A stretch of 35,735 bases of DNA from an uncultured Clostridia bacterium (GCA_944387515.1 CALXFL010000001.1:1-35735), one strand, 5' to 3'. Counted from the first letter of the stretch, positions 1-28,509 are shown. Notes: a model not told the origin generated them from the sequence alone. Translations and numbers: made by a program.

Positions 1-576
1 AAAGAAGGCGATATGCTGGTTACCTGTGCCACCGTGGTCATGAGCTATATGCAGCTCATCTCCATGCCGATGATCGGAATTACCGGCGGCACCCAGCCCA
101 TCCTCAGCTACAACTACGGCGCCAAGAAAATTGACCGCATCCGTCAGGGAGAGAAGACCATCCTGACCATGGCCGTGATTTTCGCTGTCATCATGTTCAC
201 CTTCTCCCAGCTGGTGCCCGGTGCTTTTGCCCGGATCTTTACTGGAGATGCTGAGATTCTTTCTCTGTCGGCCTGGGGGATCCGAGTCTATACCGCCTGT
301 GTCATTCCCATGGCCTTCCAGTATACCCTGGTGGATGGACTGACCGCTCTGGGTGTCCCCAAAGCAGCAGTTTCCCTGTCCCTTTTCAGAAAGGGCGTGC
401 TGTTTGTGCTGACACTGGTGCTGCCGATCTGGTTTGGTGCCCGCAGCGCCTTCTTTGCAGAGCCTATTGCAGACTTTATCTCTGGCATTTCTTCCACCAC
501 GACTTTCCTGTTGATTTTCGGGCCGTTGATGCGCAAAAGAGCCGCCATGCCCGATGGAGAAGCCCTGTACAGCTGA
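1..576 (+). CDS. MATE family efflux transporter, C-terminal part (5' end lies outside the window)
   Basis: Frame 1 is open from base 1 to the TGA at 574-576. The translation is polytopic-membrane-like and contains the MATE-typical segment GTQPILSYNYGAKK. Same family style as the complete MATE gene at 28510-29859. Confidence 0.8.
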   Translation, partial: KEGDMLVTCATVVMSYMQLISMPMIGITGGTQPILSYNYGAKKIDRIRQGEKTILTMAVIFAVIMFTFSQLVPGAFARIFTGDAEILSLSAWGIRVYTACVIPMAFQYTLVDGLTALGVPKAAVSLSLFRKGVLFVLTLVLPIWFGARSAFFAEPIADFISGISSTTTFLLIFGPLMRKRAAMPDGEALYS

Positions 577-1801: not shown

Positions 1802-3874
1802 ATGAAAAAGAGCAAAGGCTTGTCCTTTATGGGTATGGTGCTTTCTCTGTCCCTGCTGTGCAGTGTGGTACTGACAGCGTTCTATGGGCTGCCGGTTGAG
1901 GCTGCCGATTCCCAGAACCGGCATAATGTGGTAGTGGTCATGGATGCGAGTTATTCCATGGAAGACAGTGACGCAGACCGGCTTCGGATGGATGCTGTGG
2001 AACAGTTTATGGGACTGCTCACAGAGGAAGGAAACGTGGTAGGCGGTATCATTTTTGGCGGATATGCCGCTGAATCCCTGCCCCCGGTAGCCATCGACAG
2101 CCAGGAAGACAAGGATGCGGTCAATCAGTTTTTTTATAACAGCGGCTTTGTCAGCTATACCAATATCGGTGCTGGCCTGACTGCTGCTGAGGAAATGCTG
2201 GCTGAGGGAGGAGATCCTTCTCTGCCGTCGGTCATCATTCTCCTGAGTGACGGCAACACCGCCATGGAAACCGATGAAGCCCTGGAGGAAGCGCTGAATC
2301 TGAAAGCTGAAGCCATCCAGACTGCCCGGGACAATGGTACAGAAATCTATACCGTCTGTCTCAATGTGGACGGCAGCGCTGATGTCACCGAAATGCAGCA
2401 GATTTCCTCTGCTACCGGCGGCGTCTTTCAGGAGGTTGCCCGTCCCGAGGACCTGAAGGACGTGCTCAGCACCTTCTACACCCTGATTTATGGCACTTCC
2501 ACCATTCCGTTGGTGGAGGATGTCTTCCCTGAAAGCGGCCGTATTGAGACGCCCTTCCAGGTACCGGGTATCGGTGTAGAAGAGGTCAACATCGTCATCA
2601 ATGGACAGACGACCTCCATTACCCCCATTCGGCCCGATGGCACGCCCTGCGATACCGGCCTTCAGGTAACCAGCGGCCGCAGCTTTTCCCTGGTAAAAAT
2701 CCTGGATGTGGAGCCGGGAGACTGGACGCTGGTGACGACTGGCGTCCCCGGTGATGAGATCCGGGTGAATATGGTTTACAACACCAATCTGTCTGTGCTG
2801 ACTCAGGCAGATCCTGCTGAATCTCAGCTTCCTCCGGACACCCAGCTCACTGTAAAGGCGCAGCTGGCTTCAGGTGACGAGGTTGCTTCCACTGACCGGC
2901 AGTATACCGGCTACACTGCCCAGCTGGAACTGCTCAGCGGCGGACAGGTGGTCTCCACCCATACCATGCCGGTTCAGAACGGCGGCTTTTCTGTCTCAGT
3001 TCCGCTGAGCGAGGGCGTTTATCAGTATCAGGTGCGGGTAACTGGCTATTATCTGGAGCGGGTCAGCGATCCGGTATCTCTGACCGTTTCTGCTGCTGCC
3101 GAACCTCCTGTCAGCAGTGTTTCTGCTCCTGAAGAACGGGTGGAAAAGGTGGTTAATCTGTGGCCCTTCAAGGGAGGACTGCTGACACTGGACCTGAAGG
3201 AGCTGTTTGTGGCAGAGGAGACTCCTCAGATTTCCATTCTCTCCACCTCCTTCCTGGAGGGAAAGGACTACCGGCTGGAAGGCACCCTTCTGACCCAGGA
3301 CGGCTTCAGCCTTTCCAAAGGTTCCTATACCATTGAAGCCGTTTCGTCCACCGGTCAGACTGCTCAGGTGGAGCTGGTGGTACTCACCCGAAATATTGGT
3401 CTGTTGACCCTGCTGGGACTGGGTATTATTGCGCTGCTGGTGGCAGCCGGAATGGGTGTAGGACTTTATCTGGCCTTGACCAAACGGTTTTACGGCACCA
3501 TTCAGGTCACCTCCATGGCGGACGGCGCCACCAAAACGGATTCCCGTTCTCCTGCCCGGGGCCGCTGCCGTCTCAGTCAGTTTGACCTGCTGCAGACCGG
3601 TTTCCACTATGGAAAGTGTTACTTCCAGGCCACTGGCCAGCGGCATATCTTCCTCATAACCGATCAGCCGGTATCCAGTGGCGGCGTGATTTCCAAAAAG
3701 GTGCGGATCGAGAGCGGCCAGCAGACTGCGGTTACCCTACCGAACCAGGATGGAAAGATGCTCTCCATTTTGTTTGTCAGCCGTAAGGCGGCTTCCGCTG
3801 CCAGCATCAAGGCACCGAAGGCTCCCAAGGTGAAACCGCCCAAGCCTCCGAAACCCCCTAAAATTCGTCGGTAA
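1802..3874 (+). CDS. Membrane-anchored von Willebrand factor A (vWA) domain protein: signal/anchor, extracytoplasmic vWA, beta-rich repeats, TM helix, cytoplasmic tail
   Basis: ATG at 1802 follows RBS AAAGGAG (1788-1794); the longer ORF from 1712 has no RBS. Hydrophobic N-terminal leader MKKSKGLSFMGMVLSLSLLCSVVL. MIDAS motif DxSxS in VVVMDASYSMEDSD, plus LLSDGNT. TM segment IGLLTLLGLGIIALLVAAGMGVGLYLAL, then a ~125-aa tail ending KAPKAPKVKPPKPPKPPKIRR. Confidence 0.85.
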   Translation: MKKSKGLSFMGMVLSLSLLCSVVLTAFYGLPVEAADSQNRHNVVVVMDASYSMEDSDADRLRMDAVEQFMGLLTEEGNVVGGIIFGGYAAESLPPVAIDSQEDKDAVNQFFYNSGFVSYTNIGAGLTAAEEMLAEGGDPSLPSVIILLSDGNTAMETDEALEEALNLKAEAIQTARDNGTEIYTVCLNVDGSADVTEMQQISSATGGVFQEVARPEDLKDVLSTFYTLIYGTSTIPLVEDVFPESGRIETPFQVPGIGVEEVNIVINGQTTSITPIRPDGTPCDTGLQVTSGRSFSLVKILDVEPGDWTLVTTGVPGDEIRVNMVYNTNLSVLTQADPAESQLPPDTQLTVKAQLASGDEVASTDRQYTGYTAQLELLSGGQVVSTHTMPVQNGGFSVSVPLSEGVYQYQVRVTGYYLERVSDPVSLTVSAAAEPPVSSVSAPEERVEKVVNLWPFKGGLLTLDLKELFVAEETPQISILSTSFLEGKDYRLEGTLLTQDGFSLSKGSYTIEAVSSTGQTAQVELVVLTRNIGLLTLLGLGIIALLVAAGMGVGLYLALTKRFYGTIQVTSMADGATKTDSRSPARGRCRLSQFDLLQTGFHYGKCYFQATGQRHIFLITDQPVSSGGVISKKVRIESGQQTAVTLPNQDGKMLSILFVSRKAASAASIKAPKAPKVKPPKPPKPPKIRR

Positions 3875-5856: not shown

Positions 5857-8289
5857 ATGGACGGATATGACGCATTGCGCCTGACAAAGGGAGGCGGTCT
5901 CACCGCCGGAACCATGAAACCAGCGGAGGATGGATTGCATCTGTTCCTTGGACTGGGCGGCACCGGCCTCGAGTGTCTGCGCACCCTGAAGACTCGGGCC
6001 CGGGAATGGCTGGCTTTGTCAGAACTGGCAGAAGCTCCTTTTTCTCTGTTTGGAATCGATACCAACGATTACAGCAGAACAACAGGTGAATTCCTGTTGC
6101 CCCTGGAAGAGCAAGAGTTTCTCTGGCTTCGTTATCCCGGCAATTTGGGGCCTCACCTGCGTGACAGGACGGATCTCGCCTGGCTGCAGTGGAATGAGAT
6201 TCCCGATCTGGAGACTGGCAGGCCTGTTTGCCGGCAGCATAGCCGCTTTTTTCTGATGGAACATTGGCAGGAGCTGTCTGACCGCCTTCTGGATCAGTTG
6301 CAGAAGCTTCGAAGCAGAGCGCCGCAGCTTCCCATTTTTGTCCATGTCATTACCAGTATGAGTGGCCTTGCTGGTTCTGGTTGCTTTCTGGATCTCTGCT
6401 ATCTGCTTCGGAAGCTGGTGGAGATGTATGGAATGGAAAGAGTGTTTCTTTGTGGCTGGTTCTTTTTGCCCGAAACGATTCTCTCCCGAATTCCGAATAG
6501 CGATGTATCCAGTTTCCGGTTTGTCTCCATAAACAGCTATGCTGCTCTTCGGGAGTTGGATTACTGTATGAATCTTCCTGAGAATGGCAGCAGCTTTACC
6601 CAGGTTTATAAAAATGGAATGTCTGTGCCCTGGGACAGACCGCCGGTGGATTTGGCCTGTCTGGTGGGATTGCCTGAGCAGGATCCCTATCGGGGGTATC
6701 GAAAAGCCATGGAAAACCTCATGCAATACCTGATGGGACAACTGCTTTATCCTGGCTTTGCAGGGAGAATTGCCGATTTTCAGCAGAGAGCCGGACAGGC
6801 CTGGCAGAACAGAACAGATGGCAGCCGTCCGGTTTATGGCCTGCTTCAGAGCAATGCTGCCATGGCGCCGTTACGGGAGGTACAGACCAATCTGGCAGCG
6901 CTGCTTTTTGAGAAATGGAACCCTCTGTTGTCTCACCTCCCTGCCAAACAGGACGTGGAACAGCTTATCTGTAGGGCCTTCGGTAGCCAGCATATCGGTG
7001 ATCTTTACCAGACGTTGTATTTCCGGCTTACCGAGGGAGCGGATGACGGCTATATTCCTTATCCTGACAGCTGGAAAGATGTTCGGAAAAACGGCAGCAG
7101 CCATTTTCTCCAGCACTACAAAGATCAGACTGCCAACAAGCTGAGCCGGATCACCAGAAATCAGGAGAGCCTGCTGGATCCTGGCAATCCGGATTCCCTC
7201 ATCGCCAGAATCTGTCATCAGCTGGACAATGCCGTCATGGATCTGGACCAGGGCCCTGAGTACGTCTGGCAGACTTTGGAGATATGTCATGGTTACAATC
7301 TGCTGACTGTTGTGGACCGCCTGATTCTGGAGAATACCGAACGGCAGAGCCAGAACGCCGCCCAGCATAACCTCCGTCACATGGAGTATGAAAAGGCCAG
7401 ATCTGTCTTTGACGGTGCCACCGGCCTTTTCTCCCTTCCCAGCAAAGCGTTTGCAGAATATGAGTTTTTCCTGCGTGCGCTGGAGTGGCACGCTTACTGT
7501 ATGGGCGCCTATGAGGTCATGAACAGGCTGCTTTCACATTTCAGAAGCCAGTTGATGGAAGAAGGGGAACGTTACAGAAAACTGTCCAGAATGACGGAAC
7601 AGCTGAGGAAAACCTTTGAAGAGAACCGGCTTCTGCTGCGCTGCATCAACCCCAGGTATCTGCTGCCTGCTCAGTGGCATGTGATGGATCAGCTGTGTCC
7701 GCAGCTGGAGCAGGCGGTGGAGCAGGCAGACCAAAAGAAACTGTGGCAAACGTTCATCGCAGGGCTGATGTCAAGGGATACCAGCTGTCCAGACAGCGTG
7801 TTTCAATGGGTAATTACCTGTATACAGGAATCTTTTCCGACATTTTTCAGTCAGGGCTTTGCTTCCTGGCTGTACCCGCTGTGCAGCGCATCGCCTGACG
7901 GACCGCTGTCTGTTGTTTCACTGGCGAATGTCTGCAGTCTGGATGAAAGACCATTTCAAAGACAGCAGTATATGGGGTGTCACCTTTACGAGGAGCCTTT
8001 CAACGACTGGCGGAAGCTGCCGCCTCTTACGCCCCTCAGCAGGTTGTCTGGCGATATGAAGAAATTGCTGGAAGAAGAGATCCGGCGGGTGACCGAGCTT
8101 TTTCAGGAGGGGAGAAGCCAGGGCATCATCCAGCCGGACGGCCGTTTGACCGGTACCCGTACGATACTGGATGGCAGAGGTGTACCTGAAGCGCAGGAGC
8201 AGATCCTGCTGGACAGTTTCTGGCAGGCGCCGGCTTTGCAGCAATGGGTAGAGGAAGAACTCCAAATAAGAGACAAACGGGCTGATTAA
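5857..8289 (+). CDS. Giant tubulin-like (Tubulin_2/FtsZ-like style) protein A, 810 aa, degenerate nucleotide-binding signature
   Basis: RBS GAAAGGAG (5841-5848) then ATG at 5857. G1 is LFLGLGGTG. The signature position reads ITSMSGLAGSGCF instead of GGTGSG, and the GAG loop is replaced by ETGRPVCRQ. A long alpha-helical remainder is paralogous to protein B, for example DDGYIPYPDSWKDVRKNGSSHFLQHYKDQTANKL versus DDGYTPYPDGWKYVRENGNSRFVQHYTDQTANKL. Confidence 0.85.
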   Translation: MDGYDALRLTKGGGLTAGTMKPAEDGLHLFLGLGGTGLECLRTLKTRAREWLALSELAEAPFSLFGIDTNDYSRTTGEFLLPLEEQEFLWLRYPGNLGPHLRDRTDLAWLQWNEIPDLETGRPVCRQHSRFFLMEHWQELSDRLLDQLQKLRSRAPQLPIFVHVITSMSGLAGSGCFLDLCYLLRKLVEMYGMERVFLCGWFFLPETILSRIPNSDVSSFRFVSINSYAALRELDYCMNLPENGSSFTQVYKNGMSVPWDRPPVDLACLVGLPEQDPYRGYRKAMENLMQYLMGQLLYPGFAGRIADFQQRAGQAWQNRTDGSRPVYGLLQSNAAMAPLREVQTNLAALLFEKWNPLLSHLPAKQDVEQLICRAFGSQHIGDLYQTLYFRLTEGADDGYIPYPDSWKDVRKNGSSHFLQHYKDQTANKLSRITRNQESLLDPGNPDSLIARICHQLDNAVMDLDQGPEYVWQTLEICHGYNLLTVVDRLILENTERQSQNAAQHNLRHMEYEKARSVFDGATGLFSLPSKAFAEYEFFLRALEWHAYCMGAYEVMNRLLSHFRSQLMEEGERYRKLSRMTEQLRKTFEENRLLLRCINPRYLLPAQWHVMDQLCPQLEQAVEQADQKKLWQTFIAGLMSRDTSCPDSVFQWVITCIQESFPTFFSQGFASWLYPLCSASPDGPLSVVSLANVCSLDERPFQRQQYMGCHLYEEPFNDWRKLPPLTPLSRLSGDMKKLLEEEIRRVTELFQEGRSQGIIQPDGRLTGTRTILDGRGVPEAQEQILLDSFWQAPALQQWVEEELQIRDKRAD

Positions 8290-9110
8290 TGGAATCCGGG
8301 GGGCCAGCTGAGGCAGTTCGCTTCGGATTTGCTGCATTGCAGATGACTGCGATTTTTGGACGGCTGACAGATTGATAGGAGCAAAGAGACCAGGAATAGC
8401 ACCTATTGTGATCCTGAAGGAGGACTTTTTATGGCGGTTTATTCCAGATTGCCGCTTTCGACCGGCGGCGGTATCGGCTCAGAAGTACAGCAGGTCCACC
8501 AGACGCCGGGAGTTGCGACTGTACTCATCAGCCTGGGCGGCACCGGTGTCCGAGCTTATAACCGGCTGCATCCGGACAATCCCGAATCGGAGACTTCTAC
8601 TTATAAGCATATCCGGTTTCTGGGAGTGGACATCGACCCCACCAACACCGGCCGCAAGGCAGCGTGTCAAAAAAGAGATAAACGGACTGATTGATGGAAT
8701 CCGGGGTGGACAGCTGATGCTGTCCGCTCCAGATTTGCTGCCTTTTAAATTTTTTTTGCAGATTGCTGCGATTTTTGGGCGGCTGACAGATTTATGATAC
8801 CAAAGAGGCCAGGAATGGCACCTATCTGTAATCCTGAAGGAGGACTTTTTATGGCAGTTTATTCCAGATTGCTGCTTTCAGCTGGCGGCGGTATCGTCTC
8901 AGCGGTACAGCAGGCCCATCAGATGCCGGGCATCGCCACGGTGCTCATCGGCCTGGGCGGTACCGGTATCCAGTGCATCCGTACCATTAAAACCAGTGTC
9001 TATGAACGGCTGCTTCCGGATGATCCCGAAGCGGTGACGCCTACCTATAAGCATATTCGGTTTCTGGGAGTGGACACCGACCCCACCAGCACCGGTCGCA
9101 AGGTGGCAGG
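8265..9110 (+). repeat. Tandem segmental duplication (~404 + ~442 bp): 3' tail of gene A, intergenic region with RBS, and the first ~80 codons of gene B
   Basis: Copy 1 (~8265-8668) and copy 2 (~8669-9110) align along their length. Examples: AATAAGAGACAAACGGGCTGATTAATGGAATCCGGGG vs AAAAAGAGATAAACGGACTGATTGATGGAATCCGGGG, and CCTGAAGGAGGACTTTTTATGGCGGTTTATTCCAGATTGC vs ...ATGGCAGTTTATTCCAGATTGC. By eye ~80-85% identity, with a 24-nt deletion in the coding part of copy 1. Confidence 0.85.
8431..8694 (+). pseudogene. Truncated head fragment (87 codons) of a tubulin-like paralog, fused to a copy of the gene-A tail
   Basis: Translation MAVYSRLPLSTGGGIGSEVQQVHQTPGVATVLISLGGTG...YKHIRFLGVDIDPTNTGRK parallels the N-terminus of protein B (MAVYSRLLLSAGGGIVSAVQQAHQMPGIATVLIGLGGTG...YKHIRFLGVDTDPTSTGRK). 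It then ends ...KRDKRTD*, resembling the protein A end ...IRDKRAD*. It keeps RBS GAAGGAGG and an ATG. Confidence 0.6.
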
Positions 9111-12100
9111 CGCTGTCAGCACCAACGAGGACAAAAAGGCAGATCAGCTGCTGGTCCTGGATGATACCGAATTTTTCGACATCTCCAACAACCGGCTCAA
9201 GGATGCCTTACAGAATGAAGCTACCCTTTCCCGTCGGGATGACATTACCTGGCTGCGGTGGAACGACATTCCCATTCCCGACCTGGGTGAGGCGGGCGCT
9301 GGTGGTGTGCGGCAGGTGGGCCGGTTCATGATGATGGACCGCTCCATTGACTTCAAAGCCCGGATTCTTCAGGAGATCAATCTGGCCAAGGAATATGATG
9401 CCGGCAAGATGGAACCGGCCATCAACTCGGTTCACGTCCATGTCTTCACCGGCCTCAGCGGCGGCACCGGCTCCGGCTGCTTTCTGGATGTCTGCTATAT
9501 GCTCAAATCCCTGGCAGCAGAGATTGGCGGCGTGACCATTTTCGGCTACTTCTTCCTGCCGGATGTGAACCTGGCCAAAGTGTCTGCCACCGATACCCGT
9601 ACCCGTCAGTACATTCCCCGCAACGGCTTTGCCGCCATGCAGGAGTTGGACTACTGCATGCAGCTCCAGTTCAACGGCGGACGGTTCACCCAGATTTACG
9701 GCGGTCATACACCCATTGAATGGCGGGAGCCGCCGGTGGACATGGCCCACCTGATCTGTGCCACGAACCAGATGGGGGATTCCATTCCCAATGCTTACGA
9801 ATACTGTATGCAGGTGACGGCGGAATACCTGATGGACTTCCTCACCCAATCCTCTGCCGACTTCGGCGTTCTGTCCCAGATGGCCAATTTCCGCGCCAAG
9901 GTCAACGCCGCCAACGGAGAGAAGACCTTCGGCGGTAACCTGGCCTACTGTGTTCTGGGTGCCTCCTGCGCCACCATTCCCCTGCGGGAGATCAATACCT
10001 ACCTGGCTTCCCGGCTCTTTGGCCTGTGGAGCCAAGCGCTGGAGGGACGGATTCCCACCCGGCAGGAGGTGGAAAAGATCGCCTGCAACGCCATCGGTGG
10101 TCAGAGTGTCACAGATCTTTACCAGGCCCTGCTCATCAAGCTTACTGAGCGGGCGGACGACGGTTATACCCCCTATCCCGACGGCTGGAAATATGTTCGG
10201 GAGAACGGCAACAGCCGTTTTGTCCAGCACTACACCGACCAGACCGCCAACAAGCTGGGCCAGATCACCAGCAACCAGAAGAGCCTGCTGGAACTGGGCA
10301 ATCAGGAATCCATTGTGGCCAAGATCTGCCGTCAGCTGAATGATGCTGTCGTGGATTTGGACCGGGGTCCCAGCTACGCCTGGCAGACCCTTAATGCTGC
10401 ACAGAGCCACAATCTGCTGAATATTATAGACGGCCTGATCAAGGAGAACACCGAGCGCCAGAGTCAGGAGGCCGCCCAGCATAATCTCCGTCACACCGAC
10501 TATGAAAATGCCAAGGCCGCCTTTGACGGCGCCACCGGCCTTTTCTCCAATCCCGGCAGGGCATTCGGCGCCTATGAGTTTTACCTGAAGGCTTTGGAAC
10601 AGCATGACCGGATGATGGGTGTTTACGATGCCATGGATAAGATGCTCCGCAACCTCCGCCGTCAGCTGGAGGAACTGGCGGCCGGCTATTATGTCCGGCT
10701 GGCCCGGGTAGTGGAGACACTGATGAACTCCTTTAAGGAAAATTACACGCTGCTCGTCGGTAAGCAGCAGTTGAAAACCACTCACTTTGGCACGCCCATG
10801 ATGTCCATTGATGATCTGCGACCCATGCTGGATCGGGCTGTGGAGGAAATGAATCTTCGGAACAAGATGCAGGAGTTCATGGAAATGCTGCTGCAAAACA
10901 GCGATCAATGGCTTCAGGAGGATGAAAGAAAGATCACCAAGCTGGTGACCCGGTTCCTGGTAAAGGATACCTTCTCAGAGTTTGCCAGCCGCACCATTAC
11001 CAGCTATCTGTCCATTAAGTACCATACCGACAATGTGGATGTTCTGACCCAGAAAATCTATGATGACTGGATGCTGCCCCTGGACAACCGGGCCCAGCCT
11101 TTGTTCTACCTTAATGGACACATATGGAGCCAGGTTTCCGAGCTGAAGCAGGTCTCTGTGCCTGCTGAGGCTGCACCGGTGCGGATGGCGGCAGAAAATG
11201 CTGCCGCTCCTCTGGCTTGGGATATCAAACCCAGCCAGCTCACCGACCGGATCTATGTGATGCGCACCGCCTGTGCCCTGCCGCTTGCCGCTTACCAGAA
11301 ATGTGAGACCTATGAGCGGGATGCCTATTCCATTCCGGAGGCTGGCCGTCATTACTATGAGGGCAAGGGAACCGAGAAGATGCCCTTCGGCAATTGGCAG
11401 GATCTGCCCACCCTCACCCCCCTCTGCCTGTTACCTGCCACGTTGCCCGACAAGCTGACGAAGATGGTCAAACGGGTCCGGAGCGTCTTTGAACAGGCCA
11501 GAGCGGCCGGACTGATCGGAGATGAGGGACAGCTGTATGAGCAGGATACCGCCGCTGTCCAGAAGCTGCTGGAGGATGCCGCTACTCTGCGGCAGGGCCT
11601 TAAGAATGCCGCAGGCCTGCCCGAGGCTGAGAAGGTGCTGAAGCAGCTGGAGGAGGTGGCAGGCAGCACCCTGCCCATGCTCCCCACCGAGCAGAAGCTT
11701 CTTTGTGACGGATATGTTCCCACCCAGGAAGCCCGCGATATCATCATGCTGGATTATCTCTATCAGGCACCGGCCCGGATCGCCGAGCTGGAAGTCCGGC
11801 TGGACCTTCAGAAGCAGCTGGAAGGCCAGGTACAGGAGGAGATTCAGCAGCTGAAAAATACCATCTACCAGTTGGGGAAAGGTGCTCGACTCCAGGATGC
11901 CTTCTTTGACGCCGTCTTCACCGATGTCATCCATCTGGAGGGACGGGTGGCCATTTTTATCAAACAGGTATCTGGTATCAGTACCGAGATCTATCTCTCC
12001 AAACGGGGAGAGGAGTTCCCCTTTGCTTCAATTCCGGTCTATCAGGCCTTCCTCTCGGCTCAGGCCATGTCCGAGGAGGACCAGAAGCAGATGACCCGTC

Positions 12101-12297
12101 AGGTAGATGACATTTATAACACCAACGCGCCCATTCTCAAAGAAAACGGTGCCCGCCTGAAGGATGAGCTGTCGGTGGAGCAGATCCAGAGCTGGATCCA
12201 GCGGGCCGGCGATTTTCCTGAAACTGCCGAAATTACCGCCTTCCTGACCAAGCTGAAGCAGCGCTTTGACCTGTTCTGCGGAGAATTCAAGATCTGA
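8851..12297 (+). CDS. Giant tubulin-like protein B, 1148 aa, intact tubulin/FtsZ signature
   Basis: RBS GAAGGAGG (8836-8843) then ATG at 8851. G1 is VLIGLGGTG, the GAG loop is GEAGAGGVRQVGRF, and the signature is VFTGLSGGTGSGCFLDVCY (~9445-9480). A long helical, coiled-coil-like C-terminal part shares PF.NW..LP.LTPL with protein A. Confidence 0.9.
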   Translation: MAVYSRLLLSAGGGIVSAVQQAHQMPGIATVLIGLGGTGIQCIRTIKTSVYERLLPDDPEAVTPTYKHIRFLGVDTDPTSTGRKVAGAVSTNEDKKADQLLVLDDTEFFDISNNRLKDALQNEATLSRRDDITWLRWNDIPIPDLGEAGAGGVRQVGRFMMMDRSIDFKARILQEINLAKEYDAGKMEPAINSVHVHVFTGLSGGTGSGCFLDVCYMLKSLAAEIGGVTIFGYFFLPDVNLAKVSATDTRTRQYIPRNGFAAMQELDYCMQLQFNGGRFTQIYGGHTPIEWREPPVDMAHLICATNQMGDSIPNAYEYCMQVTAEYLMDFLTQSSADFGVLSQMANFRAKVNAANGEKTFGGNLAYCVLGASCATIPLREINTYLASRLFGLWSQALEGRIPTRQEVEKIACNAIGGQSVTDLYQALLIKLTERADDGYTPYPDGWKYVRENGNSRFVQHYTDQTANKLGQITSNQKSLLELGNQESIVAKICRQLNDAVVDLDRGPSYAWQTLNAAQSHNLLNIIDGLIKENTERQSQEAAQHNLRHTDYENAKAAFDGATGLFSNPGRAFGAYEFYLKALEQHDRMMGVYDAMDKMLRNLRRQLEELAAGYYVRLARVVETLMNSFKENYTLLVGKQQLKTTHFGTPMMSIDDLRPMLDRAVEEMNLRNKMQEFMEMLLQNSDQWLQEDERKITKLVTRFLVKDTFSEFASRTITSYLSIKYHTDNVDVLTQKIYDDWMLPLDNRAQPLFYLNGHIWSQVSELKQVSVPAEAAPVRMAAENAAAPLAWDIKPSQLTDRIYVMRTACALPLAAYQKCETYERDAYSIPEAGRHYYEGKGTEKMPFGNWQDLPTLTPLCLLPATLPDKLTKMVKRVRSVFEQARAAGLIGDEGQLYEQDTAAVQKLLEDAATLRQGLKNAAGLPEAEKVLKQLEEVAGSTLPMLPTEQKLLCDGYVPTQEARDIIMLDYLYQAPARIAELEVRLDLQKQLEGQVQEEIQQLKNTIYQLGKGARLQDAFFDAVFTDVIHLEGRVAIFIKQVSGISTEIYLSKRGEEFPFASIPVYQAFLSAQAMSEEDQKQMTRQVDDIYNTNAPILKENGARLKDELSVEQIQSWIQRAGDFPETAEITAFLTKLKQRFDLFCGEFKI

Positions 12298-12364: not shown

Positions 12365-14236
12365 ATGACAGATTTCAGTGTAAAGGATTTGATCAGCTAC
12401 TTTGCAGCCAGAGTCCGCCGCCGCCGGCACTTCCTCCCGGGAAGTACCATGTCGGTACCGGAATACCCGATGGCTGTGGTGTATCTGGGTAATGCGGATA
12501 AGGCTCATGAGGAGCTGTCCCGTCATCTGTTCCGGGTATGGCCGGCCTATGAGGAGGAGCTGCTGTTTCTCTCGGTCCGGCCGGATGGAGAAGAGATTGC
12601 CATTACCAGTCTGGGACCGGACGGCAGCCGGCAAGCGCTTACCGGAGATGATCTCCGCCGGATGGTCACGGTTTGTTTTAGCTCGGAAGCTCATTTTGCC
12701 CAGAAAAGCAGTCTATTGGTTTATTATCTGCTGGACACCACGGATTTTAAGGAGCCCAGCGAACTGGACAACTGGCTGCGGGTCATCAAGAAGATGAAAA
12801 AAGCGTTGGCGGCGCCTCAGCTGCCCGTGCTGACTATGCTGCTTCAGGAGGACTTTGTCCATCAGCCGGTGGCAGCCGGCATCCGCAGCCGGCTGGCGGA
12901 GCTGGCCGACATGCTGCCTGCGGTTTACCTCATCAGCAGCCAGCTGAAGGATGGCACTCTGCTGTCCGACTGGAAGGAGGGCTGGCACATTGCGGCTAAC
13001 CTGATGCTCCTGTCCAATCAGGGGCTTCCCCGCACCGTTTCCCTCCGGTCTCCCGGCTTCAAGGCCGTGGCCTATGCCCGGGAAGAAAAGCCAGTGGAGC
13101 AAATTGCTCAGGCCGTGCTGCGCTGTCTTATTATCCGGTTAGGAGACGAACTTCATGCCAATGCGCTGCCCAAGCCTCTTCAGGAAGAGGGAGCAGCTGG
13201 CCGGCTGGGACTTACCAATGAAGGCGCCTTCCAGCTGCTGGATAGCTACGGGGAGACGCTGATGGAAAAACTTTCTGCCGACCGGCTGAGCCGGTTCCCC
13301 CGCCGCCGGGCGGAGGAAATGGCAGTAAGTGAACAGACCACCGGCCAGGCCTTCAACGACCTGACTCTGGGCTGCTGGAAGGAATATCTGTGGCAGATGG
13401 TTCGGGAGACTGCATCCGGTATGGAGCAGTGGACTCCCGGCTGGCGGCGGGCTTACCGGGACTGGCTCTTTTCTCAATTCAATACCAGTGAACTGGCTGC
13501 ACTGGATGGACGGCAGGAACTGATCCACTCGATGATCGTCCAGGCTCCCAGTGAACCAGGCGATCTGCCGGTGCTGGTGGATGGCCGCCGCTGGCTGGGA
13601 AAGGCGCTGTCGGCCCATCCCGTTATCCAGAATTTCTTCCTTGGACTGATTGGGGAGATGGCAAAAGAAGCAGGCGCGTTCCTGTCTGCCTGGCAGGACC
13701 TGGTGGAAACCTGGCAGAAGGTCATTCCCCTGGCGGATGACAGTATCAGTGAGTTCTATACCCGCAAAATGAACCATGACTTTGACAGTAAGGGAAAGAA
13801 GTGGGTGGACGAGCTGCGGCGGATTCACACCCAGCAGGAACTGGAGCAGTTCCTTCACCGGATCATCGATGAGCTGGTGGATGGAGACGAGATCTACTAC
13901 GCGCCCTTTGAGGAGGAGCTGGCTTACCGCCTTCGGGAAATTCACGGAGACGATGGTCAGGCTGCTCAGATTTATCTGCGGGATAAGCTCACCGGAGACA
14001 ATGTCCGGCTTTACCTACCGGCGGCCTTCTGGATGGGAACGCCCCTGCTGTCGGCGATTCTGCTTCAGCATGACACCTCTCTTCATCAGTTCCTTATCGG
14101 TTCGCTTCCTGAAAATACCTGGTATTACCAGACCGGCAGCAGCGACCGGGCCGAGGCCATGGTGATCTATGAGGTGAACACCGAAAACATCTACCAGGGA
14201 CAGGAGGACGATGACGATGACCTATCAATACTGTGA
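12365..14236 (+). CDS. Hypothetical protein (623 aa), no recognisable catalytic motif; possibly a degenerate tubulin-like fold at the N-terminus
   Basis: RBS GGAAGGAGAAGGA then ATG at 12365. Long ORF with coding-like composition. Motif-free strand/helix pattern MAVVYLGNADKAHEEL ... LLVYYLLDTTDFKEPSELDNWLRVIKKM ... LPVLTMLL parallels the G1 strand, signature loop and following strand of the neighbouring tubulin-like proteins, but without the glycines. Confidence 0.75.
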   Translation: MTDFSVKDLISYFAARVRRRRHFLPGSTMSVPEYPMAVVYLGNADKAHEELSRHLFRVWPAYEEELLFLSVRPDGEEIAITSLGPDGSRQALTGDDLRRMVTVCFSSEAHFAQKSSLLVYYLLDTTDFKEPSELDNWLRVIKKMKKALAAPQLPVLTMLLQEDFVHQPVAAGIRSRLAELADMLPAVYLISSQLKDGTLLSDWKEGWHIAANLMLLSNQGLPRTVSLRSPGFKAVAYAREEKPVEQIAQAVLRCLIIRLGDELHANALPKPLQEEGAAGRLGLTNEGAFQLLDSYGETLMEKLSADRLSRFPRRRAEEMAVSEQTTGQAFNDLTLGCWKEYLWQMVRETASGMEQWTPGWRRAYRDWLFSQFNTSELAALDGRQELIHSMIVQAPSEPGDLPVLVDGRRWLGKALSAHPVIQNFFLGLIGEMAKEAGAFLSAWQDLVETWQKVIPLADDSISEFYTRKMNHDFDSKGKKWVDELRRIHTQQELEQFLHRIIDELVDGDEIYYAPFEEELAYRLREIHGDDGQAAQIYLRDKLTGDNVRLYLPAAFWMGTPLLSAILLQHDTSLHQFLIGSLPENTWYYQTGSSDRAEAMVIYEVNTENIYQGQEDDDDDLSIL

Positions 14237-14876
14237 ATACGATGAAAAGAGATTCGCCACAGCTCTCCGTCAGGACAGTGTCAACGGACACCTGAAATGG
14301 GATTCGGCAGCGGGACAGAGTGTGATGGTGTTTCGTTCTCCCTACGGAGAGGATCTGCTGTCCCAGATGGAGACGCTTTGTGCGGCAATGACCGGAAAGC
14401 CCCTGCCGGAGGGTTGTTTTCAGCCGGTGACACCGGAGATTCAGGTCCGGTATCTGACAGCGGTGGATAAGGCCCGATCCCAGGGTTGCCCCCTTCAGGG
14501 GGAGGGATACCGGTATACCGTCATCAGCTGTCTGGCTGATGGAGAATGCTGCCGGCTCTTTGCTCCTCAGCAGAACGTTATGAACCGTCCCTTTTGCGAT
14601 GTGCCGGTTACCATTCAGGCTTCGGTAGAGCCGGTGATGGCTGGCGGTGGGCCTTTCCGCCGCCTGCGCCTGTGGGGTAGGAGACAGGAGTTCTCCGGCT
14701 TCTACCATATTTCCTTTAAGATGGACCATCCCGACGATTATCCCAATGGTGGCATATCGGTCTGCTGCGGCGAAATGACCTTTCCGGTGACCAAGGAGAT
14801 GGTTCGGGAGGGCTTTTGTCTGCCAGCTTCGGAGAAACCCCGGCTGTTGTTCCGTGACGGCTTACAGATCAAATAA
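14217..14876 (+). CDS. Hypothetical protein (~219 aa), Cys-rich, translationally coupled to the upstream gene
   Basis: AGGAGG (14202-14207) lies 9 nt before ATG 14217; the alternative ATG at 14211 is only 3 nt away. The gene overlaps the upstream stop (14234-14236). No family recognised. Confidence 0.7.
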   Translation: MTYQYCEYDEKRFATALRQDSVNGHLKWDSAAGQSVMVFRSPYGEDLLSQMETLCAAMTGKPLPEGCFQPVTPEIQVRYLTAVDKARSQGCPLQGEGYRYTVISCLADGECCRLFAPQQNVMNRPFCDVPVTIQASVEPVMAGGGPFRRLRLWGRRQEFSGFYHISFKMDHPDDYPNGGISVCCGEMTFPVTKEMVREGFCLPASEKPRLLFRDGLQIK

Positions 14877-14890
14877 AGGAGCGTTTTACC

Positions 14891-16456
14891 GTGAAAAATC
14901 TTATCTGCCCCTATTGTTTTGAACCTTTTACGGATGAAGAGGTGCATTTTCGTTCTGAATATGTGAGCCCCGATGAGTTCCCCTTCCCGGAAGGATATGA
15001 CGACATTCAGGATTTCCGCACCCGTTATCGGGGCAGCGACCGGGATCAGCTGCTGGAGGCCTACGATGTCTGGGAGGTCTTCCGGCCTGCCATCTCTCCC
15101 AAGTATGAGAAGTTCTGGGCTGGATTCAGCGAAAAAAAGGATCAGTTCAAGACTACCGAAAAGGAACCGGCTGCCAAGTACTTTGGCGTTGAGCCCTATA
15201 AGCGTCCTGTATTGGATCCCGGCAGCCCCGTCCATCAGAAGTTCCTCCGTCCCCAGAAGGATGGATTCTTCATTCGGGACGAGAATGGCATGGTTTCCCA
15301 GATTCAGCTGAAGACGGGAGAGAAGTGCAACCGCCGGGTCTGCCCTCATTGTCACAATCCTTTGCCGGATGGCTATGGCGCCCATCGGGTGCGGTTTGTA
15401 TCGGTCATCGGCATCACCGGTGCAGGCAAGACAGTCTATTTTTCCCAGCTGCTGAAGCGGATGGATAAGTATGCTTTTGCCATTGGCATGTCATCTACCA
15501 CCACCACTGCCAGTGTTCAGAACTTCCTGGAACAGAATGGGGTAGAAAAGCAGAAGCCGCTGCCCACCTCCACGCCGCTGCGGGAAATGCAGCAGCCTCT
15601 TTTCTACGACATGACCTATTCGGTCAGCTCTACCCACAAAGAAACCGAGACACTGGTTCTCTACGATGTGCCGGGCGAGGTCTTTGACCCCAAAAAGATG
15701 GCACTGCTTCCGCTCTATGCGCCCTATATCCAGCACGCAGATGGATTGATTCTGCTCATCAGCCCCGATCAGTTTGAGGTGGTGGCACAGCTTCACGAGG
15801 AAACCCGTCAGCTGAGTGACGCACAGACCGCTTTGCAGGCTATTCACAGCACCGTGGTGGGCGGCGGTACAGAAAAATGCACCCGGCCGCTGGCCATCTG
15901 TGTGGCTCAGGCGGACCAGCCCAGAATCCAGGCGGTGCTCAGCCCCTCCCTCCGGGATAAGCTGCTGAGCGATGTTCGCAGCATCACTGGAAGGGATGGC
16001 CGGCCGGCGCCCTTCTTCAACGGCAACGACTATAACCTGCTTTATACGGAGCTGCAGGACTTTATTCTGAACGCAGATCCAGTTCTGGACAACACCGCCC
16101 ATACCAACTACCTTCATTACAGCTATTTCGCCTTTACTGCTTTGGGCTGTGAGGTGAAGCGCAACGAGGAACAGGGCTTTGATTACCCCGTAGGGCCCGT
16201 TCTGCCCAAGCGGATTGAGGAGCCGCTTTACTGGCTTCTTTACAAGCTGGGGTACATGGGCACTCAGGGGATTCCTCTTTCTGATCCACTCTGCTGTCCC
16301 AACTGCCACAGCTATGAGGGACCGGATCCATTGCCCGAGGATCACCAGTATGTGGAGGGAAGAAGATGGTTCTTCTTTCCCCATAAGATACCTGCCACCC
16401 ATATCTGTCATAAATGCGGACATCATTGGGTGCAGGAGGAAGGAGGACAGGGATGA
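14891..16456 (+). CDS. TRAFAC-type P-loop GTPase flanked by zinc ribbons
   Basis: GTG start at 14891 after RBS AAAGGAG. N-terminal CPYC...CPHC and C-terminal CPNC...CHKC Cys pairs. G1 GITGAGKT, G3 LYDVPGE, G4-like VAQAD (compare the septin-type AKAD). Confidence 0.85.
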   Translation: MKNLICPYCFEPFTDEEVHFRSEYVSPDEFPFPEGYDDIQDFRTRYRGSDRDQLLEAYDVWEVFRPAISPKYEKFWAGFSEKKDQFKTTEKEPAAKYFGVEPYKRPVLDPGSPVHQKFLRPQKDGFFIRDENGMVSQIQLKTGEKCNRRVCPHCHNPLPDGYGAHRVRFVSVIGITGAGKTVYFSQLLKRMDKYAFAIGMSSTTTTASVQNFLEQNGVEKQKPLPTSTPLREMQQPLFYDMTYSVSSTHKETETLVLYDVPGEVFDPKKMALLPLYAPYIQHADGLILLISPDQFEVVAQLHEETRQLSDAQTALQAIHSTVVGGGTEKCTRPLAICVAQADQPRIQAVLSPSLRDKLLSDVRSITGRDGRPAPFFNGNDYNLLYTELQDFILNADPVLDNTAHTNYLHYSYFAFTALGCEVKRNEEQGFDYPVGPVLPKRIEEPLYWLLYKLGYMGTQGIPLSDPLCCPNCHSYEGPDPLPEDHQYVEGRRWFFFPHKIPATHICHKCGHHWVQEEGGQG

Positions 16457-19725: not shown

Positions 19726-21093
19726 ATGGAACGGCTGAAAGAATGGCTGCCGGCTTTTTCGCCGGCAGGGATCATACTGGCGGCAGTGCTGGCAGCACTG
19801 CTGGTCTGGAGCTTTTATAGCTGGAAGCGGAGGGGCCAGCCTGTCCGGCGGCGGGTCTCCGCACCGGATCCCGGTCCACTGTACTTCAGTGAGCTTTACG
19901 GGGGCCGGATCTATCTTCCTGTGGGTTCCCGCACCGGTGCGCTAGGGGAGCCGAATCGGGCCGGACAGAGTGTGATTTTGCAGGAGCTGACCAGCGGAGA
20001 GCAGTTTTGCCTTCAGCGTCAGGGAAGCCACAGCGGAAAGATGGCCTGGCAGGTGCTCTGTCCGCCTCAGTGGCAGGACATTCTCTGGCCCTGTGATCTG
20101 GTGAGACTTCGCCGCCCGGATCAGAAGAGCGGGTGCACGATTCTCTCTGACCGTTTCTGGGGAGAAGATCCGCCCACACCGGAAGAGCAGCTTCAGCGGA
20201 TGGACCAGGAGGAGCTGGCTCTGGTGATGCCTATGGGCGGCTGTCCTTCCGGACTGACGCCGCTGTCTGGTCTGCTGGCCGGGATGCAGAAGTCGCTGGA
20301 AGCACCCAATTACATCACCCAGCCCCGGATTGCCCGGTTGGCGCTCTCCCTGGCGGAAGTGCTGGCGCGGTTGGAGGAGCGGGGGTACAGCTGTCTGGAC
20401 CTCCATCCTGACCGGCTGCTGGTGACACCGGACGATCGGATCTGGCTGGATTATTCCAGTCTGATCTGTCCGGTGGATCAGCTGGAAGTGGGTGTTCAGC
20501 TGAAGGAAGAGGAATTTCCGCTGGAATTTGCCGAGCCGCTGCTGGGAACCGGCAAGCGGCAACTGGCCGATCTTCACACCGCCCGGTTTTCTCTGGCGGC
20601 ACTGCTCTTTTATCTGCTGTTTGGAGCTTATCCCTATGATGGACGGCTGATGTCCGGTTATGCCGATGGTTCGGTGCAGCAGCACTTTGTCAAATTCAAG
20701 GCCTATCATCAGGCGCCGGTGTTTCTGTTTGATCCGGTGGATGACAGCAACAGGCTCGTCTTTACCGCAAAAAGTGAGCCGCTTAAAGCGGCATGGGAAC
20801 AGACACCTCTGCCAGTGCAGCAGGCCTTTGTAGAGATTTTGGGTACACAGAATGCGCTGCGGGAGCAGCCGGTTCAGAATCTTTCTCCGGCTCAATGGGC
20901 AGAGGTGCTCCGATGGCTGCCAGTGCTCAAGCCATCTGAATCAGCAGAACCAGTCCGTACAGCACCGGCTGATGAAGCAGATATACCGGCAGTGCAAACC
21001 GCCCCACCAGCGACAATGGCCGGATCCCCAGCTGCTTCCACCGCTCCCACTGAGGGAGACGGGTCAGAAGCGGATGGAGAAACCGCCCTGTGA
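19726..21093 (+). CDS. N-terminally membrane-anchored protein kinase-like protein, probable pseudokinase
   Basis: RBS AAAGGAGA then ATG at 19726. TM segment AGIILAAVLAALLVWSFY. Catalytic-loop-like GYSCLDLHPDRLLV (compare HRDLKPENILV, Lys and Asn not conserved). DYS in place of DFG. C-lobe signature FSLAALLFYLLFGAYPYDG. No obvious Gly-rich loop or VAIK. Ala/Pro-rich acidic tail. Confidence 0.75.
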   Translation: MERLKEWLPAFSPAGIILAAVLAALLVWSFYSWKRRGQPVRRRVSAPDPGPLYFSELYGGRIYLPVGSRTGALGEPNRAGQSVILQELTSGEQFCLQRQGSHSGKMAWQVLCPPQWQDILWPCDLVRLRRPDQKSGCTILSDRFWGEDPPTPEEQLQRMDQEELALVMPMGGCPSGLTPLSGLLAGMQKSLEAPNYITQPRIARLALSLAEVLARLEERGYSCLDLHPDRLLVTPDDRIWLDYSSLICPVDQLEVGVQLKEEEFPLEFAEPLLGTGKRQLADLHTARFSLAALLFYLLFGAYPYDGRLMSGYADGSVQQHFVKFKAYHQAPVFLFDPVDDSNRLVFTAKSEPLKAAWEQTPLPVQQAFVEILGTQNALREQPVQNLSPAQWAEVLRWLPVLKPSESAEPVRTAPADEADIPAVQTAPPATMAGSPAASTAPTEGDGSEADGETAL

Positions 21094-21655
21094 CAAACAG
21101 AAAAAGCCAGGGCAGCAGGGGAAAGTAGTCGGTGGAGAAAAAGTCCGCCGGCGGAAATCCAGTCCATACCGCCAGCATACGAAGAGGCAGCCCGGCAGTT
21201 TCGCTCAGAGATGGCAGGGTGATGGCCCAAAGGGCCAGAAAGACGATGAAACTCCCGGCTGCGTCCAGAATGGGCGGGATCCGGCGGCATAGCCGGTCCA
21301 GGGGAATCATCAGCAGCATAGCCGAGCCAGTAAAGGTGAGCACACCGCAGATAACCCGGTTTTCCGGGATAATGAGCAGGGTGACGATGGTGAGGAGCGC
21401 GCCGGCGCCCAGCACCGTCAGTCCTCTTTTCAGGTGATGGCGGCCCATGGGCCAGCAGAAGCCGGACAGGAGAATAAAGGTCCAGCAGATGCTCTGCTGC
21501 CAGAAACGGGCAGCGTCTGAGGTAAACCAGCCCCAGGGCAGGCCCAGCAGATAAAACCCATCCCAGCAGGCGTGGTAGGCAATCATGCTGAGGATGGCAG
21601 CGCCCCGGATGGTATCGGGGAGAGCCGCCCGGCGGGCGGAAGAAGGGGATGGCAT
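20927..21655 (-). CDS. DUF1624 / heparan-alpha-glucosaminide N-acetyltransferase-like integral membrane protein
   Basis: ATG (reverse complement of 21653-21655) is 7 nt after RBS AAAGGAGG (reverse complement of 21663-21670). The N-terminus ...IRGAAILSMIAYHACWDGFY and C-terminus GRFALPVYLLHQPVLYG are typical of the family. Polytopic. Confidence 0.8.
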   Translation of the reverse strand: MPSPSSARRAALPDTIRGAAILSMIAYHACWDGFYLLGLPWGWFTSDAARFWQQSICWTFILLSGFCWPMGRHHLKRGLTVLGAGALLTIVTLLIIPENRVICGVLTFTGSAMLLMIPLDRLCRRIPPILDAAGSFIVFLALWAITLPSLSETAGLPLRMLAVWTGFPPADFFSTDYFPLLPWLFLFVTGRFLHPLLTRLPQWERWKQLGIRPLSLVGRFALPVYLLHQPVLYGLVLLIQMA

Positions 21656-21795
21656 GAGATGGCCTCCTTTTTGGGGGAAGACCCCCGGGATTTCTGCTTC
21701 TATCCTACCACGGGGGGCGGGAATCTGCAAGAGGCATCCTGGTGAAGATGGATGCCCGACAATGGGGAAAGATCCCCGGAAAGTGAGGATGCAAG

Positions 21796-22818: not shown

Positions 22819-22831
22819 AAGGAGGAAGGGT

Positions 22832-28180: not shown

Positions 28181-28438
28181 AGGCATCCTTCTTATGGATT
28201 GTTCTGGGGAGGAGTGTCCGGGTTCACAGTGTGGTGAAGCAGATGTTCCCAAAAGAAAAATCCCGATATGGACAGCATCCTCATGAAGTCAGAGAAGTTT
28301 TGTCAGGTTTGCAAAGATATTCTGAAAATGTATGAGAACAGTATAACACATTCCCCGAAAACTTTCAATCATTTCCCCGGTCTCTCTGCGGTCTGGTAAA
28401 AATCATGTCAGGAACCTCTTTTCAACCTGTGAAAACCG

Positions 28439-28467
28439 TTGACATTTGGCTCATCCTGCATTATCAT
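28439..28467 (+). promoter_or_regulatory. Sigma-A-type promoter for the MATE gene, with a palindrome over the -10
   Basis: TTGACA (28439-28444), 17-nt spacer, TATCAT (28462-28467). The inverted repeat CCTGCAT-N7-ATGCAGG (28455-28475) overlaps the -10. Confidence 0.55.
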
Positions 28468-28509
28468 AATGCAGGACATTTTCAAAAAAAGACAGGAGGA
28501 AACATTGTC

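Follow-up and report, generated by a model that had tools for sequence, protein, structure and literature searches.

Adjacent giant tubulin-like paralogs with one intact and one degenerate GTP pocket in a clostridial gene cluster

Why would a bacterium keep, directly upstream of a giant tubulin-like protein with an intact nucleotide pocket, a paralog whose pocket has degenerated? The question is raised by 35,735 nt of DNA, given as one strand, from an uncultured Clostridia bacterium (GCA_944387515.1 CALXFL010000001.1:1-35735; hereafter the window), in which positions 5857-12297 encode two such proteins, A (810 amino acids) and B (1148 amino acids). An initial annotation had proposed that A and B form an obligate heteromer in which a single subunit binds or hydrolyses guanosine triphosphate (GTP), by analogy with alpha/beta-tubulin and BtubA/B. 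We find that the observation behind this proposal is correct and that the analogy over-reaches. We favor instead, at a probability of roughly 45%, a reading drawn from sequence in which A, unable to bind GTP, serves B as an accessory subunit or modulator rather than as an obligate partner.

A and B are paralogs encoded in tandem, and within the FtsZ/tubulin superfamily they fall in the FtsZl1/Tubulin_2 branch. In Pfam scans at curated cut-offs (Tubulin_2, PF13809, 27 bits; DO-GTPase2, PF19993, 27; GAP1-N2, PF20013, 24), the Tubulin_2 profile matched A with 91.1 bits (E 1e-25, profile positions 1-297 of 356) and B with 194.3 bits (E 5e-57, positions 1-351 of 356). BLASTP aligned the two proteins at 39% identity over 732 residues (E 1e-151), and a second alignment joined their C-terminal PF.[ND]W..LP.LTPL motifs, whose W, L and P reach 90% conservation or more across the family. 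The shared N-terminal domain and C-terminal motif (PF.NW..LP.LTPL) thus stand as first annotated, and the central helical modules, judged by eye to be ~75% identical in DNA, are 75.1% identical by computation. A ribosome-binding site, AAAGGAG, lies 9 nt ahead of the A start codon, and B begins at 8851 (MAVY...) as in all orthologs, which do not use the longer 1167-residue frame from 8794.

The two proteins part ways in the nucleotide pocket. We aligned a B-family profile to Escherichia coli FtsZ (hhalign, local, E 2.8e-4) and found that GLGGTG of B pairs with GVGGGG (loop T1), GAGGVRQVGR with GAGANPEVGR (T3) and GLSGGTGSG with GMGGGTGTG (T4). A retains T1 and has lost glycines at the T3 and T4 positions, where it reads ETGRPVCRQHSR and SGLAGSG; these strings, together with GAGGVRQVGR and SGGTGSG of B, are exactly those of the initial annotation, and the contrast of one intact and one degenerate pocket is borne out by the FtsZ alignment. 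The T3 and T4 glycines and the T4 threonine are 94-100% conserved among ~119 B-type relatives, so the substitutions in A are real departures and not family noise. B matches the GGGTG(S/T)G-type T4 signature, and A does so in none of its 12 alleles. Given its Tubulin_2 score and the lost signature, A is a divergent family member by homology, not by motif. In FtsZ and tubulin, loop T3 is the sensor of the gamma-phosphate and T4 the loop that holds the phosphates; GTP binding is reportedly lost in FtsZ T4 mutants, T108A among them. We infer that A probably no longer binds or senses GTP. The T7 'synergy' loop of the superfamily carries acidic residues through which one subunit triggers GTP hydrolysis in its neighbor. 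No NxDxx(D/E)-like T7 motif was evident in the family consensus, though the hhalign alignment is unreliable past helix H5.

A is maintained, under much weaker constraint than the genes around it. Its exact-sequence cluster has 21 members, among them 12 distinct full-length alleles (810 or 815 amino acids). All 12 have an open frame, SGLAGSG and ETGRP[VI]CRQHSR; the T3 equivalent is identical in 11 and differs in the twelfth by V to I only. Two alleles separated by ~87 nucleotide differences and an in-frame 15-nt indel both remain open. In a codon comparison of the window with contig L002, the ratio of nonsynonymous to synonymous change (pN/pS) was 0.41 for the whole of A – 0.24 in the N-domain, 0.45 in the central module and 0.90 in the C-terminal third – versus 0.09 for B and 0.12 for five other operon genes pooled (Fisher p 2e-8 and 1e-6, respectively). 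The ratio is nonetheless below neutrality for the whole gene (binomial p 9e-5) and for the N-domain (p 6e-5). Among alleles, 15% of protein columns vary in A and 3% in B. Fixed loops in 12 alleles, a constrained N-domain and a dedicated ribosome-binding site argue that A is being maintained, and the overall pattern fits an accessory or fast-evolving role; it fits slow decay less well.

Synonymous divergence between the window and L002 also differs between the two neighbors: it is 0.143 synonymous differences per synonymous site (Sd/S) in B, about twice the 0.066 of the adjacent A, which suggests that they have had different recombination histories.

B is the conserved core component of the locus, with an intact GTP pocket, and A is a lineage-specific extra copy. 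A word-indexed search recovered 1088 relatives of B at E <= 1e-5, the top 120 of which are nearly all 1140-1170 amino acids long and 42-50% identical over their full length. The corresponding search with A recovered four: its own 94% allele cluster, a hybrid protein (P0002, described below) and two ~800-residue proteins at 26-30% identity that keep canonical loops. An exhaustive phmmer search of 1.84 billion representatives with the A N-domain gave no match more than 39% identical beyond its own species cluster, and the GTDB species set contained no locus closer to A. A may not be a recent copy of its own B: its N-domain stands as far from B as from B orthologs (33-37% identity to each), and it shares the string NSYAALRELDY with short-class proteins.

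Gene order gives the same picture. The heteromer proposal presupposed that A and B travel together; they do so within the species, where both lie on every contig long enough to show them and the A and B clusters each include seven contigs of matching size, and not beyond it, as the majority of 78 species-level loci have one Tubulin_2 gene. We read five related contigs, with more distant B orthologs, one gene at a time. Four of them (L006, L007, L009 and L010) encode a vWA-domain protein, a single B-type protein, proteins of ~625 and ~215 amino acids, a DO-GTPase and GAP1, in that order and with nothing between the vWA and B-type genes. In the fifth, L008, the B-type gene again follows the vWA gene directly, and two further Tubulin_2 paralogs lie upstream of the latter.

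In the window, by comparison, the vWA and B genes are separated by A, by a Clp-like AAA+ ATPase gene and by a third tubulin-like gene that the initial annotation had not noted. This 242-residue mini-tubulin covers only the N-terminal GTPase half of the fold, has intact loops (T1 GMGGAG, T4 GGGTGSG) and is under strong constraint (ratio of nonsynonymous to synonymous substitution rates, dN/dS, 0.084). A search of 5.8 billion proteins found no homolog of it other than a 99% copy, and among 95 loci the mini-tubulin and AAA+ genes are confined to the window's lineage. Since these two genes and A are limited to one lineage and vWA is directly followed by B elsewhere, the three genes represent a lineage-specific insert into a widespread operon. 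The AAA+ start codon is uncertain: the protein is called at 335 amino acids in L002-L004 and at 284 in the window and L001.

A is not alone in its degeneracy. We tabulated every Tubulin_2 open reading frame (ORF) and its loops in the 78 species-level loci, which came from a family-profile search. A single long canonical gene is the rule at these loci; in about a dozen, two to four genes stand in tandem, and there a long copy of ~1120-1165 amino acids usually has shorter ones upstream of it. A non-canonical T3 core and/or T4 was present in 12 of 19 extra copies versus 18 of 81 main copies (Fisher p 0.0014; the classes are crude, the loci are non-independent and the query profile was built from degenerate members). 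Mild variants (GACG or GASG) and short-type proteins from short contigs account for most of the 18 non-canonical main copies. In most cases an extra copy has its closest match in the long copy of the same locus – 83% identical in L067, 75% in L070, 74% in L008, 70% in L061, 59% in L043, 50% in L069, 48% in L034 and 43% in both L048 and L013 – so the duplications are largely independent. Degenerate extra copies therefore recur independently. This recurrence supports the initial annotation on that point, as does the fixed degenerate state of the 12 A alleles.

The extra copies fall into two classes: in one, 0-2 of 11 loop positions have changed, even at 40-50% overall identity; in the other 3-8 have, which is about the background rate. 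We tested targeted inactivation of the loops as an explanation and rejected it, as 41 changes were observed versus 52 expected at a uniform rate. One pair hints that two pocket states can be kept apart. In L067 (2821-5847 and 5863-9315), the N-domains are 83% identical and segments have been homogenized to a third-position identity of 0.8-0.9; the T3-T4 segment stands at 0.38-0.43, with FSTYG and CGATGSG in the upstream copy versus AGAGG and GGGTGSG.

Other arrangements of the family also occur. In L092 (1439-16137, a Hungatella metagenome-assembled genome), four Tubulin_2 paralogs all have a non-standard T3 or T4 (for example CGMTGGG and SGTTGSG), with no canonical partner within the retrieved stretch. 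L043 (9995-21265, Bifidobacterium callimiconis) has three paralogs. In L014 (6097-14332), a degenerate 992-residue Tubulin_2 protein (LPIPYCRQHGR, SGSIGSG) is encoded downstream of the main operon, next to Endonuclease_NS_2, a TraG/VirD4-like coupling protein and a second vWA gene.

Structure prediction places both proteins in the superfamily. AlphaFold2 (AF2) models from family alignments are confident for B (mean predicted local distance difference test, pLDDT, 89.7; predicted template modelling score, pTM, 0.78) and for A (88.1 and 0.78). In Foldseek searches of the PDB, the first ~400 residues of the predicted B model matched FtsZ, CetZ and tubulins (best E 6.6e-6, 2r6r), with a template modelling (TM) score of 0.46-0.52 on the target over ~362-366 aligned columns. 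As this amounts to nearly whole FtsZ chains, the model suggests that the second half of the fold is present. The predicted A N-domain gave weaker matches to FtsZ, CetZ2, tubulin and TubZ (E 3.2e-4 for 6y1v; TM 0.40-0.47). PDB sequence searches with B and with the B-family profile returned weak coiled-coil noise and no tubulin-family match.

In both models the tubulin-like domain is followed by helical bundles and a 68-69-residue helix (568-636 in B, 528-595 in A). B has a further alpha/beta domain and a C-terminal domain that are largely missing from A, which lacks the last ~140 residues of B and part of an alpha/beta domain. The large appended scaffolds supposed in the initial annotation are thus real, and they correspond to the known architecture of FtsZl1, in which an N-domain resembling FtsZ is joined to a coiled coil and a C-domain made of helices (Makarova & Koonin, Biol Direct 2010, PMC2875224). 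The long helical region of A also gave weak Foldseek matches (E 7e-3 to 1e-2) to SmhB and AhlB, components of tripartite alpha-pore-forming toxins; these probably reflect generic long-helix similarity.

A receives B sequence by gene conversion in a ~160-residue helical module after the tubulin-like domain. Third-codon-position identity between A and B is 0.6-0.8 across residues 384-545 of A and 0.35-0.45 elsewhere. The A module is 65% identical in amino acids to that of its own B and 39% to those of B orthologs, and the B module is 46% identical to those of its own orthologs. The similarity of the two modules is therefore younger than the genes, which points to gene conversion and not only to constraint on the protein. 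One allele of A (P0274, 815 amino acids) has B-derived tracts at residues 394-441 and 458-485, with 26 informative sites; the longest exact match between A and B in the window is 18 nt. Since A tolerates B's version of the module, the two modules are probably functionally interchangeable. A homogenized module was also found in L034 (921 versus 1131 amino acids) and, as a mosaic, in L067.

The hybrid P0002 (L001 4296-7622, 1108 amino acids) joins residues 1 to ~393 of A to the central and C-terminal parts of B, and its left breakpoint coincides with the start of the P0274 tract. It may be a real deletion by unequal crossover, or an assembler jump through the converted, near-identical tract.

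The spacer between A and B holds a further trace of recombination, which the initial annotation had not noted. Each copy of a ~405-nt tandem duplication consists of the last 27 nt of A, a leader with a ribosome-binding site and the first ~250 nt of B. A 24-nt deletion in copy 1 has created an 87-residue ORF made of the first ~90 codons of B and a copy of the last codons of A. This remnant has no Pfam match and no evident function; it is called as a gene of 82 or 87 amino acids in L002-L005 and L095, so it is older than the split between these strains. Two other interpretations of the region were discarded. A is not a truncated gene followed by B-like C-terminal remnants, for which tblastn gave no match, the spacer being a duplicated 5' end of B; and a 141-residue ORF with a TTG start (8372-8797), which does not share the frame of the remnant gene, is probably spurious.

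A and B lie within one co-oriented gene cluster. It is a predicted conflict system centered on a DO-GTPase, of the GAP1-N2 type and with the 'tubulin theme' of Firmicutes. We base this identification on the DO-GTPase2 and GAP1-N2 genes downstream and on the match to published descriptions (PMC2875224; Kaur, Burroughs, Iyer & Aravind, eLife 2020, PMC7159879). Judging by the names of the nearest homologs, the host is probably a gut member of the Oscillospiraceae or another of the Clostridia. Homologs of the neighboring genes are widespread among the 95 loci: 73 have the vWA protein, 65 the DO-GTPase, 55 the 623-residue protein and 45 GAP1. The GAP1 gene lies directly 3' of the DO-GTPase gene and overlaps its stop codon, and the genes that follow GAP1 have a similar order in L006-L010. 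Comparison of nine operon proteins, including A, B, vWA and DO-GTPase, with PADLOC-DB v2 gave only marginal AAA matches (E 5e-4 to 9e-4); PADLOC has no model for DO-GTPase systems. Our literature search found no experimental work on FtsZl1/Tubulin_2 proteins or DO-GTPase systems.

These results lead us to the reading of A as a modulator of B. A, having lost its T3 and T4 phosphate contacts, would no longer bind or sense GTP and would be non-catalytic. It could associate with B, or with partners of B, through the interchangeable central module and the C-terminal motif, and could thereby cap, limit, seed or decoy the GTP-dependent assembly of B, the predicted output of the system. Assembly of B would itself be controlled by the DO-GTPase/GAP1 switch and the vWA protein. 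Because most relatives lack A, it appears dispensable for the basic system.

Several observations weigh against this reading. What the system does as a whole is known by computational prediction. Constraint on A is far weaker than on any of its neighbors (pN/pS of 0.06-0.18), and its C-terminal third is indistinguishable from neutral (p 0.79). In the extra copies at other loci, pocket constraint has been lost in a subset and has not been replaced by a new conserved motif. The upstream copies in L046 (6814-9902; 303 and 726 amino acids) and L033 (7798-9964; 289 and 511 amino acids, overlapping) each show up as a pair of adjacent ORFs in our ORF and hidden Markov model (HMM) table and may be broken or frameshifted. 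Comparison of paralog pairs found no homogenization of the central module in L048, L013 or L069, which rules it out as a general feature of such pairs; it may thus be a neutral by-product of adjacency. Finally, L001 lacks the 3' part of A, the spacer and the 5' part of B, and with them the intact GTPase domain of B.

Much of this would be expected if A were simply a redundant copy that is turning into a pseudogene, with loop loss, C-terminal shortening and fast evolution all signs of decay and with gene conversion and the hybrid as by-products of similar sequences lying side by side. The high pN/pS of A and its near-neutral C-terminal third, its excess of allele-variable columns, the background rate of change at loop positions in degenerate copies, the possibly broken genes of L046 and L033, the missing C-terminal parts and the confinement of A to one species-level cluster all agree with decay. 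We nonetheless consider it somewhat unlikely, as the 810- or 815-codon frame has stayed open in every full-length allele through the differences and indel described above, the N-domain is significantly below neutrality, the AF2 model of A is confident and the combination of a degenerate with an intact copy recurs independently.

A bolder version of the modulator reading holds that nucleotide-dead tubulin-like paralogs are recurrent, selectively maintained regulatory subunits of a tubulin-based immune or containment polymer: copies of the core protein would lose the GTP pocket time and again and, as caps, seeds or decoys, would fix the level at which assembly sets in, a role elaborated in this lineage as a three-gene add-on. 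We regard this generalization as doubtful. If true, it would provide a prokaryotic parallel to specialized non-exchanging or non-polymerizing tubulin isoforms.

It is improbable, in our view, that A, the mini-tubulin and the Clp-like AAA+ ATPase form a separate module added between vWA and B, in which the mini-tubulin would supply a GTP-binding half-domain, the AAA+ protein would remodel or disassemble assemblies and A would serve as a scaffold or as a decoy target for invader proteins that attack B. The three genes do occur always together and only in this lineage, the mini-tubulin is intact at T1 and T4 and strongly constrained, and the inactive domain as decoy or dominant-negative is a theme of Kaur et al. 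(PMC7159879); yet no homologous trio exists elsewhere for comparison, and the degenerate copies of L048, L034, L067 and L061 occur without a mini-tubulin or AAA+ gene.

Adjacency in one orientation, constant co-occurrence within the species, the common central module and C-terminal motif and the fixed degenerate state of A would suit an A-B heterodimer as the polymerizing unit with GTP in B only, but this is very improbable, as B has over 1000 relatives and mostly stands as the single B-type gene in homologous systems, A is weakly constrained where an obligate structural partner would be expected to come close to B, the hybrid (if real) removes the GTPase domain of B from an otherwise intact operon, and the model for such a pair is inexact: alpha/beta-tubulin and BtubA/B are obligate heterodimers in which both subunits keep an intact G-box and bind GTP, their asymmetry lying in the T7 catalytic residue and in exchangeability.

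The features of the cluster are collected in Table 1.

Table 1. Coordinates of the A and B genes, their loops and modules, and neighboring features, in window positions.
Feature	Position	Strand	Evidence or remark
vWA-domain protein, 690 aa, first operon gene	1802-3874	+	Pfam VWA E 3.8e-13; ORF opens 1712
Mini tubulin-like protein, 242 aa	4027-4755	+	Tubulin_2 E 1.7e-12, Tubulin E 2.3e-6
Clp/AAA_2-type AAA+ ATPase, 284 aa	4971-5825	+	Pfam AAA, AAA_2, ClpB_D2-small
Protein A, 810-aa Tubulin_2 paralog, degenerate T3 and T4	5857-8289	+	Pfam, BLASTP, AF2
A T1 loop GLGGTG, aa 32-37, intact	5950-5967	+	
A T3-loop equivalent ETGRPVCRQHSR, aa 119-130, glycines lost	6211-6246	+	
A T4 equivalent SGLAGSG, aa 169-175, with L in place of G and A in place of T	6361-6381	+	
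A central helical module, aa 384-545	7006-7491	+	Gene-conversion tract with B
A C-terminal motif PFNDWRKLPPLTPL, aa 714-727	7996-8037	+	BLASTP
Tandem duplication, ~405 nt, 80-90% identity (copy 1 8263-8667, copy 2 8668-9103)	8263-9103	+	Repeat search
Remnant ORF, 87 aa	8431-8694	+	Translation
Protein B, 1148-aa core Tubulin_2 (FtsZl1), intact T1/T3/T4	8851-12297	+	Pfam, orthologs, AF2
B T3 loop GAGGVRQVGR, aa 149-158	9295-9324	+	
B T4 signature SGGTGSG, aa 203-209	9457-9477	+	
B central helical module, aa 424-585, conversion donor	10120-10605	+	
B C-terminal motif PFGNWQDLPTLTPL, aa 845-858	11383-11424	+	
Terminator-like hairpin, 15-bp stem, directly 3' of B stop codon	12298-12330	+	Consensus scan alone
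Conserved protein, 623 aa, without Pfam domain; follows the B-type gene in relatives too	12365-14236	+	
Conserved protein, 221 aa, without Pfam domain	14211-14876	+	
DO-GTPase (double-GTPase family)	14891-16456	+	PF19993 DO-GTPase2 E 1.4e-10, 41.6 bits
GAP1 protein with GAP1-N2 domain, 1096 aa	16414-19704	+	PF20013 E 1.2e-9, 38.8 bits
Further operon genes: 455 aa (no domain), Sel1-repeat protein (21796-22818), 773 aa (no domain)	19726-25153	+	

The hairpin at the B stop codon lies inside an operon-like string of genes and might attenuate read-through into the 623-aa gene. A GC-rich terminator-like hairpin, GCCCCGCTTC..GGAAGCGGGGC followed by a T-run, occurs in four similar copies (823-849, 1023-1056, 1231-1266 and 1397-1432) spaced ~170-210 nt apart, between a MatE fragment at the left end of the window (13-576) and the vWA gene. 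A full MatE gene (28405-29859) lies to the right of the system, adjoined by a minus-strand gene for an AraC-family regulator (26009-28252). Near the right edge of the window (33352-35273), a DnaB_2 (DnaD-like) protein and an IstB/DnaC-like ATPase form a replication-initiation or helicase-loader pair.

FtsZl1/Tubulin_2 is the FtsZ/tubulin superfamily's most divergent branch, and the systems that contain it are common in gut Clostridia. If degenerate paralogs do regulate assembly of the intact one, they would offer a natural means of asking if proteins of this size form polymers in the first place, and how the threshold of a predicted GTPase-gated containment system is set. The 12 alleles, with one conversion tract caught in the act and a possible hybrid, also make a small, clean example of concerted evolution between genes with differing active sites. 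Should A simply be in decay, the locus would be unremarkable within a family that has already been described.

The locus is readily compared with known systems. In common with FtsZl1 it has proteins of ~1000-1150 amino acids whose operons also encode a vWA protein and a divergent P-loop GTPase, and both the A and B models have the helical C-terminal architecture of that family; FtsZl1 is partly defined by its T4 signature, which A lacks (PMC2875224). The alignment in that study ended at helix H5, and its authors proposed a role in membrane remodelling, not conflict.

The closest described system is the GAP1-N2 GTPase-centric conflict system. As described by Kaur et al. (PMC7159879), the system includes a protein with rapidly evolving fibronectin type III (FNIII) repeats, and its Firmicutes form has two genes for tubulin domains with coiled coils and two vWA genes, one fused to YtkA and one with transmembrane helices. 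Our locus shares with this description a DO-GTPase gene followed by a GAP1-N2 gene, an upstream vWA gene, a pair of tubulin-domain genes whose products have long, helical C-terminal portions, and occurrence in Clostridia. It differs in its single vWA gene by Pfam and in its extra mini-tubulin and Clp-like AAA+ genes, and most close relatives on the contigs we examined have one tubulin gene rather than two. The scanned operon ORFs gave no Pfam match to YtkA or to a second vWA domain, and no ORF scanned matched FNIII; the 623-, 455- and 773-residue proteins had no domain match at all. The kind of system and its two tubulin genes were therefore already known. The degenerate pocket of one copy finds no mention in that paper.

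A also resembles pseudo-enzymes such as pseudo-GTPases and pseudo-kinases, which keep a fold, lose catalytic or nucleotide-binding residues and are encoded beside active relatives – though pseudo-enzymes are a concept rather than a homologous family, with proposed roles as regulators, decoys or dominant negatives. In MoxR-vWA and GTPase-centric systems, cellular NTPases in inactive form recur as effectors, according to PMC7159879. With alpha/beta-tubulin and BtubA/B, A and B have in common that paralogous subunits of the superfamily are used together and have unequal nucleotide-site roles. Unlike the subunits of those pairs, A is optional and weakly constrained, and its whole phosphate pocket is degraded in the manner of a pseudo-enzyme.

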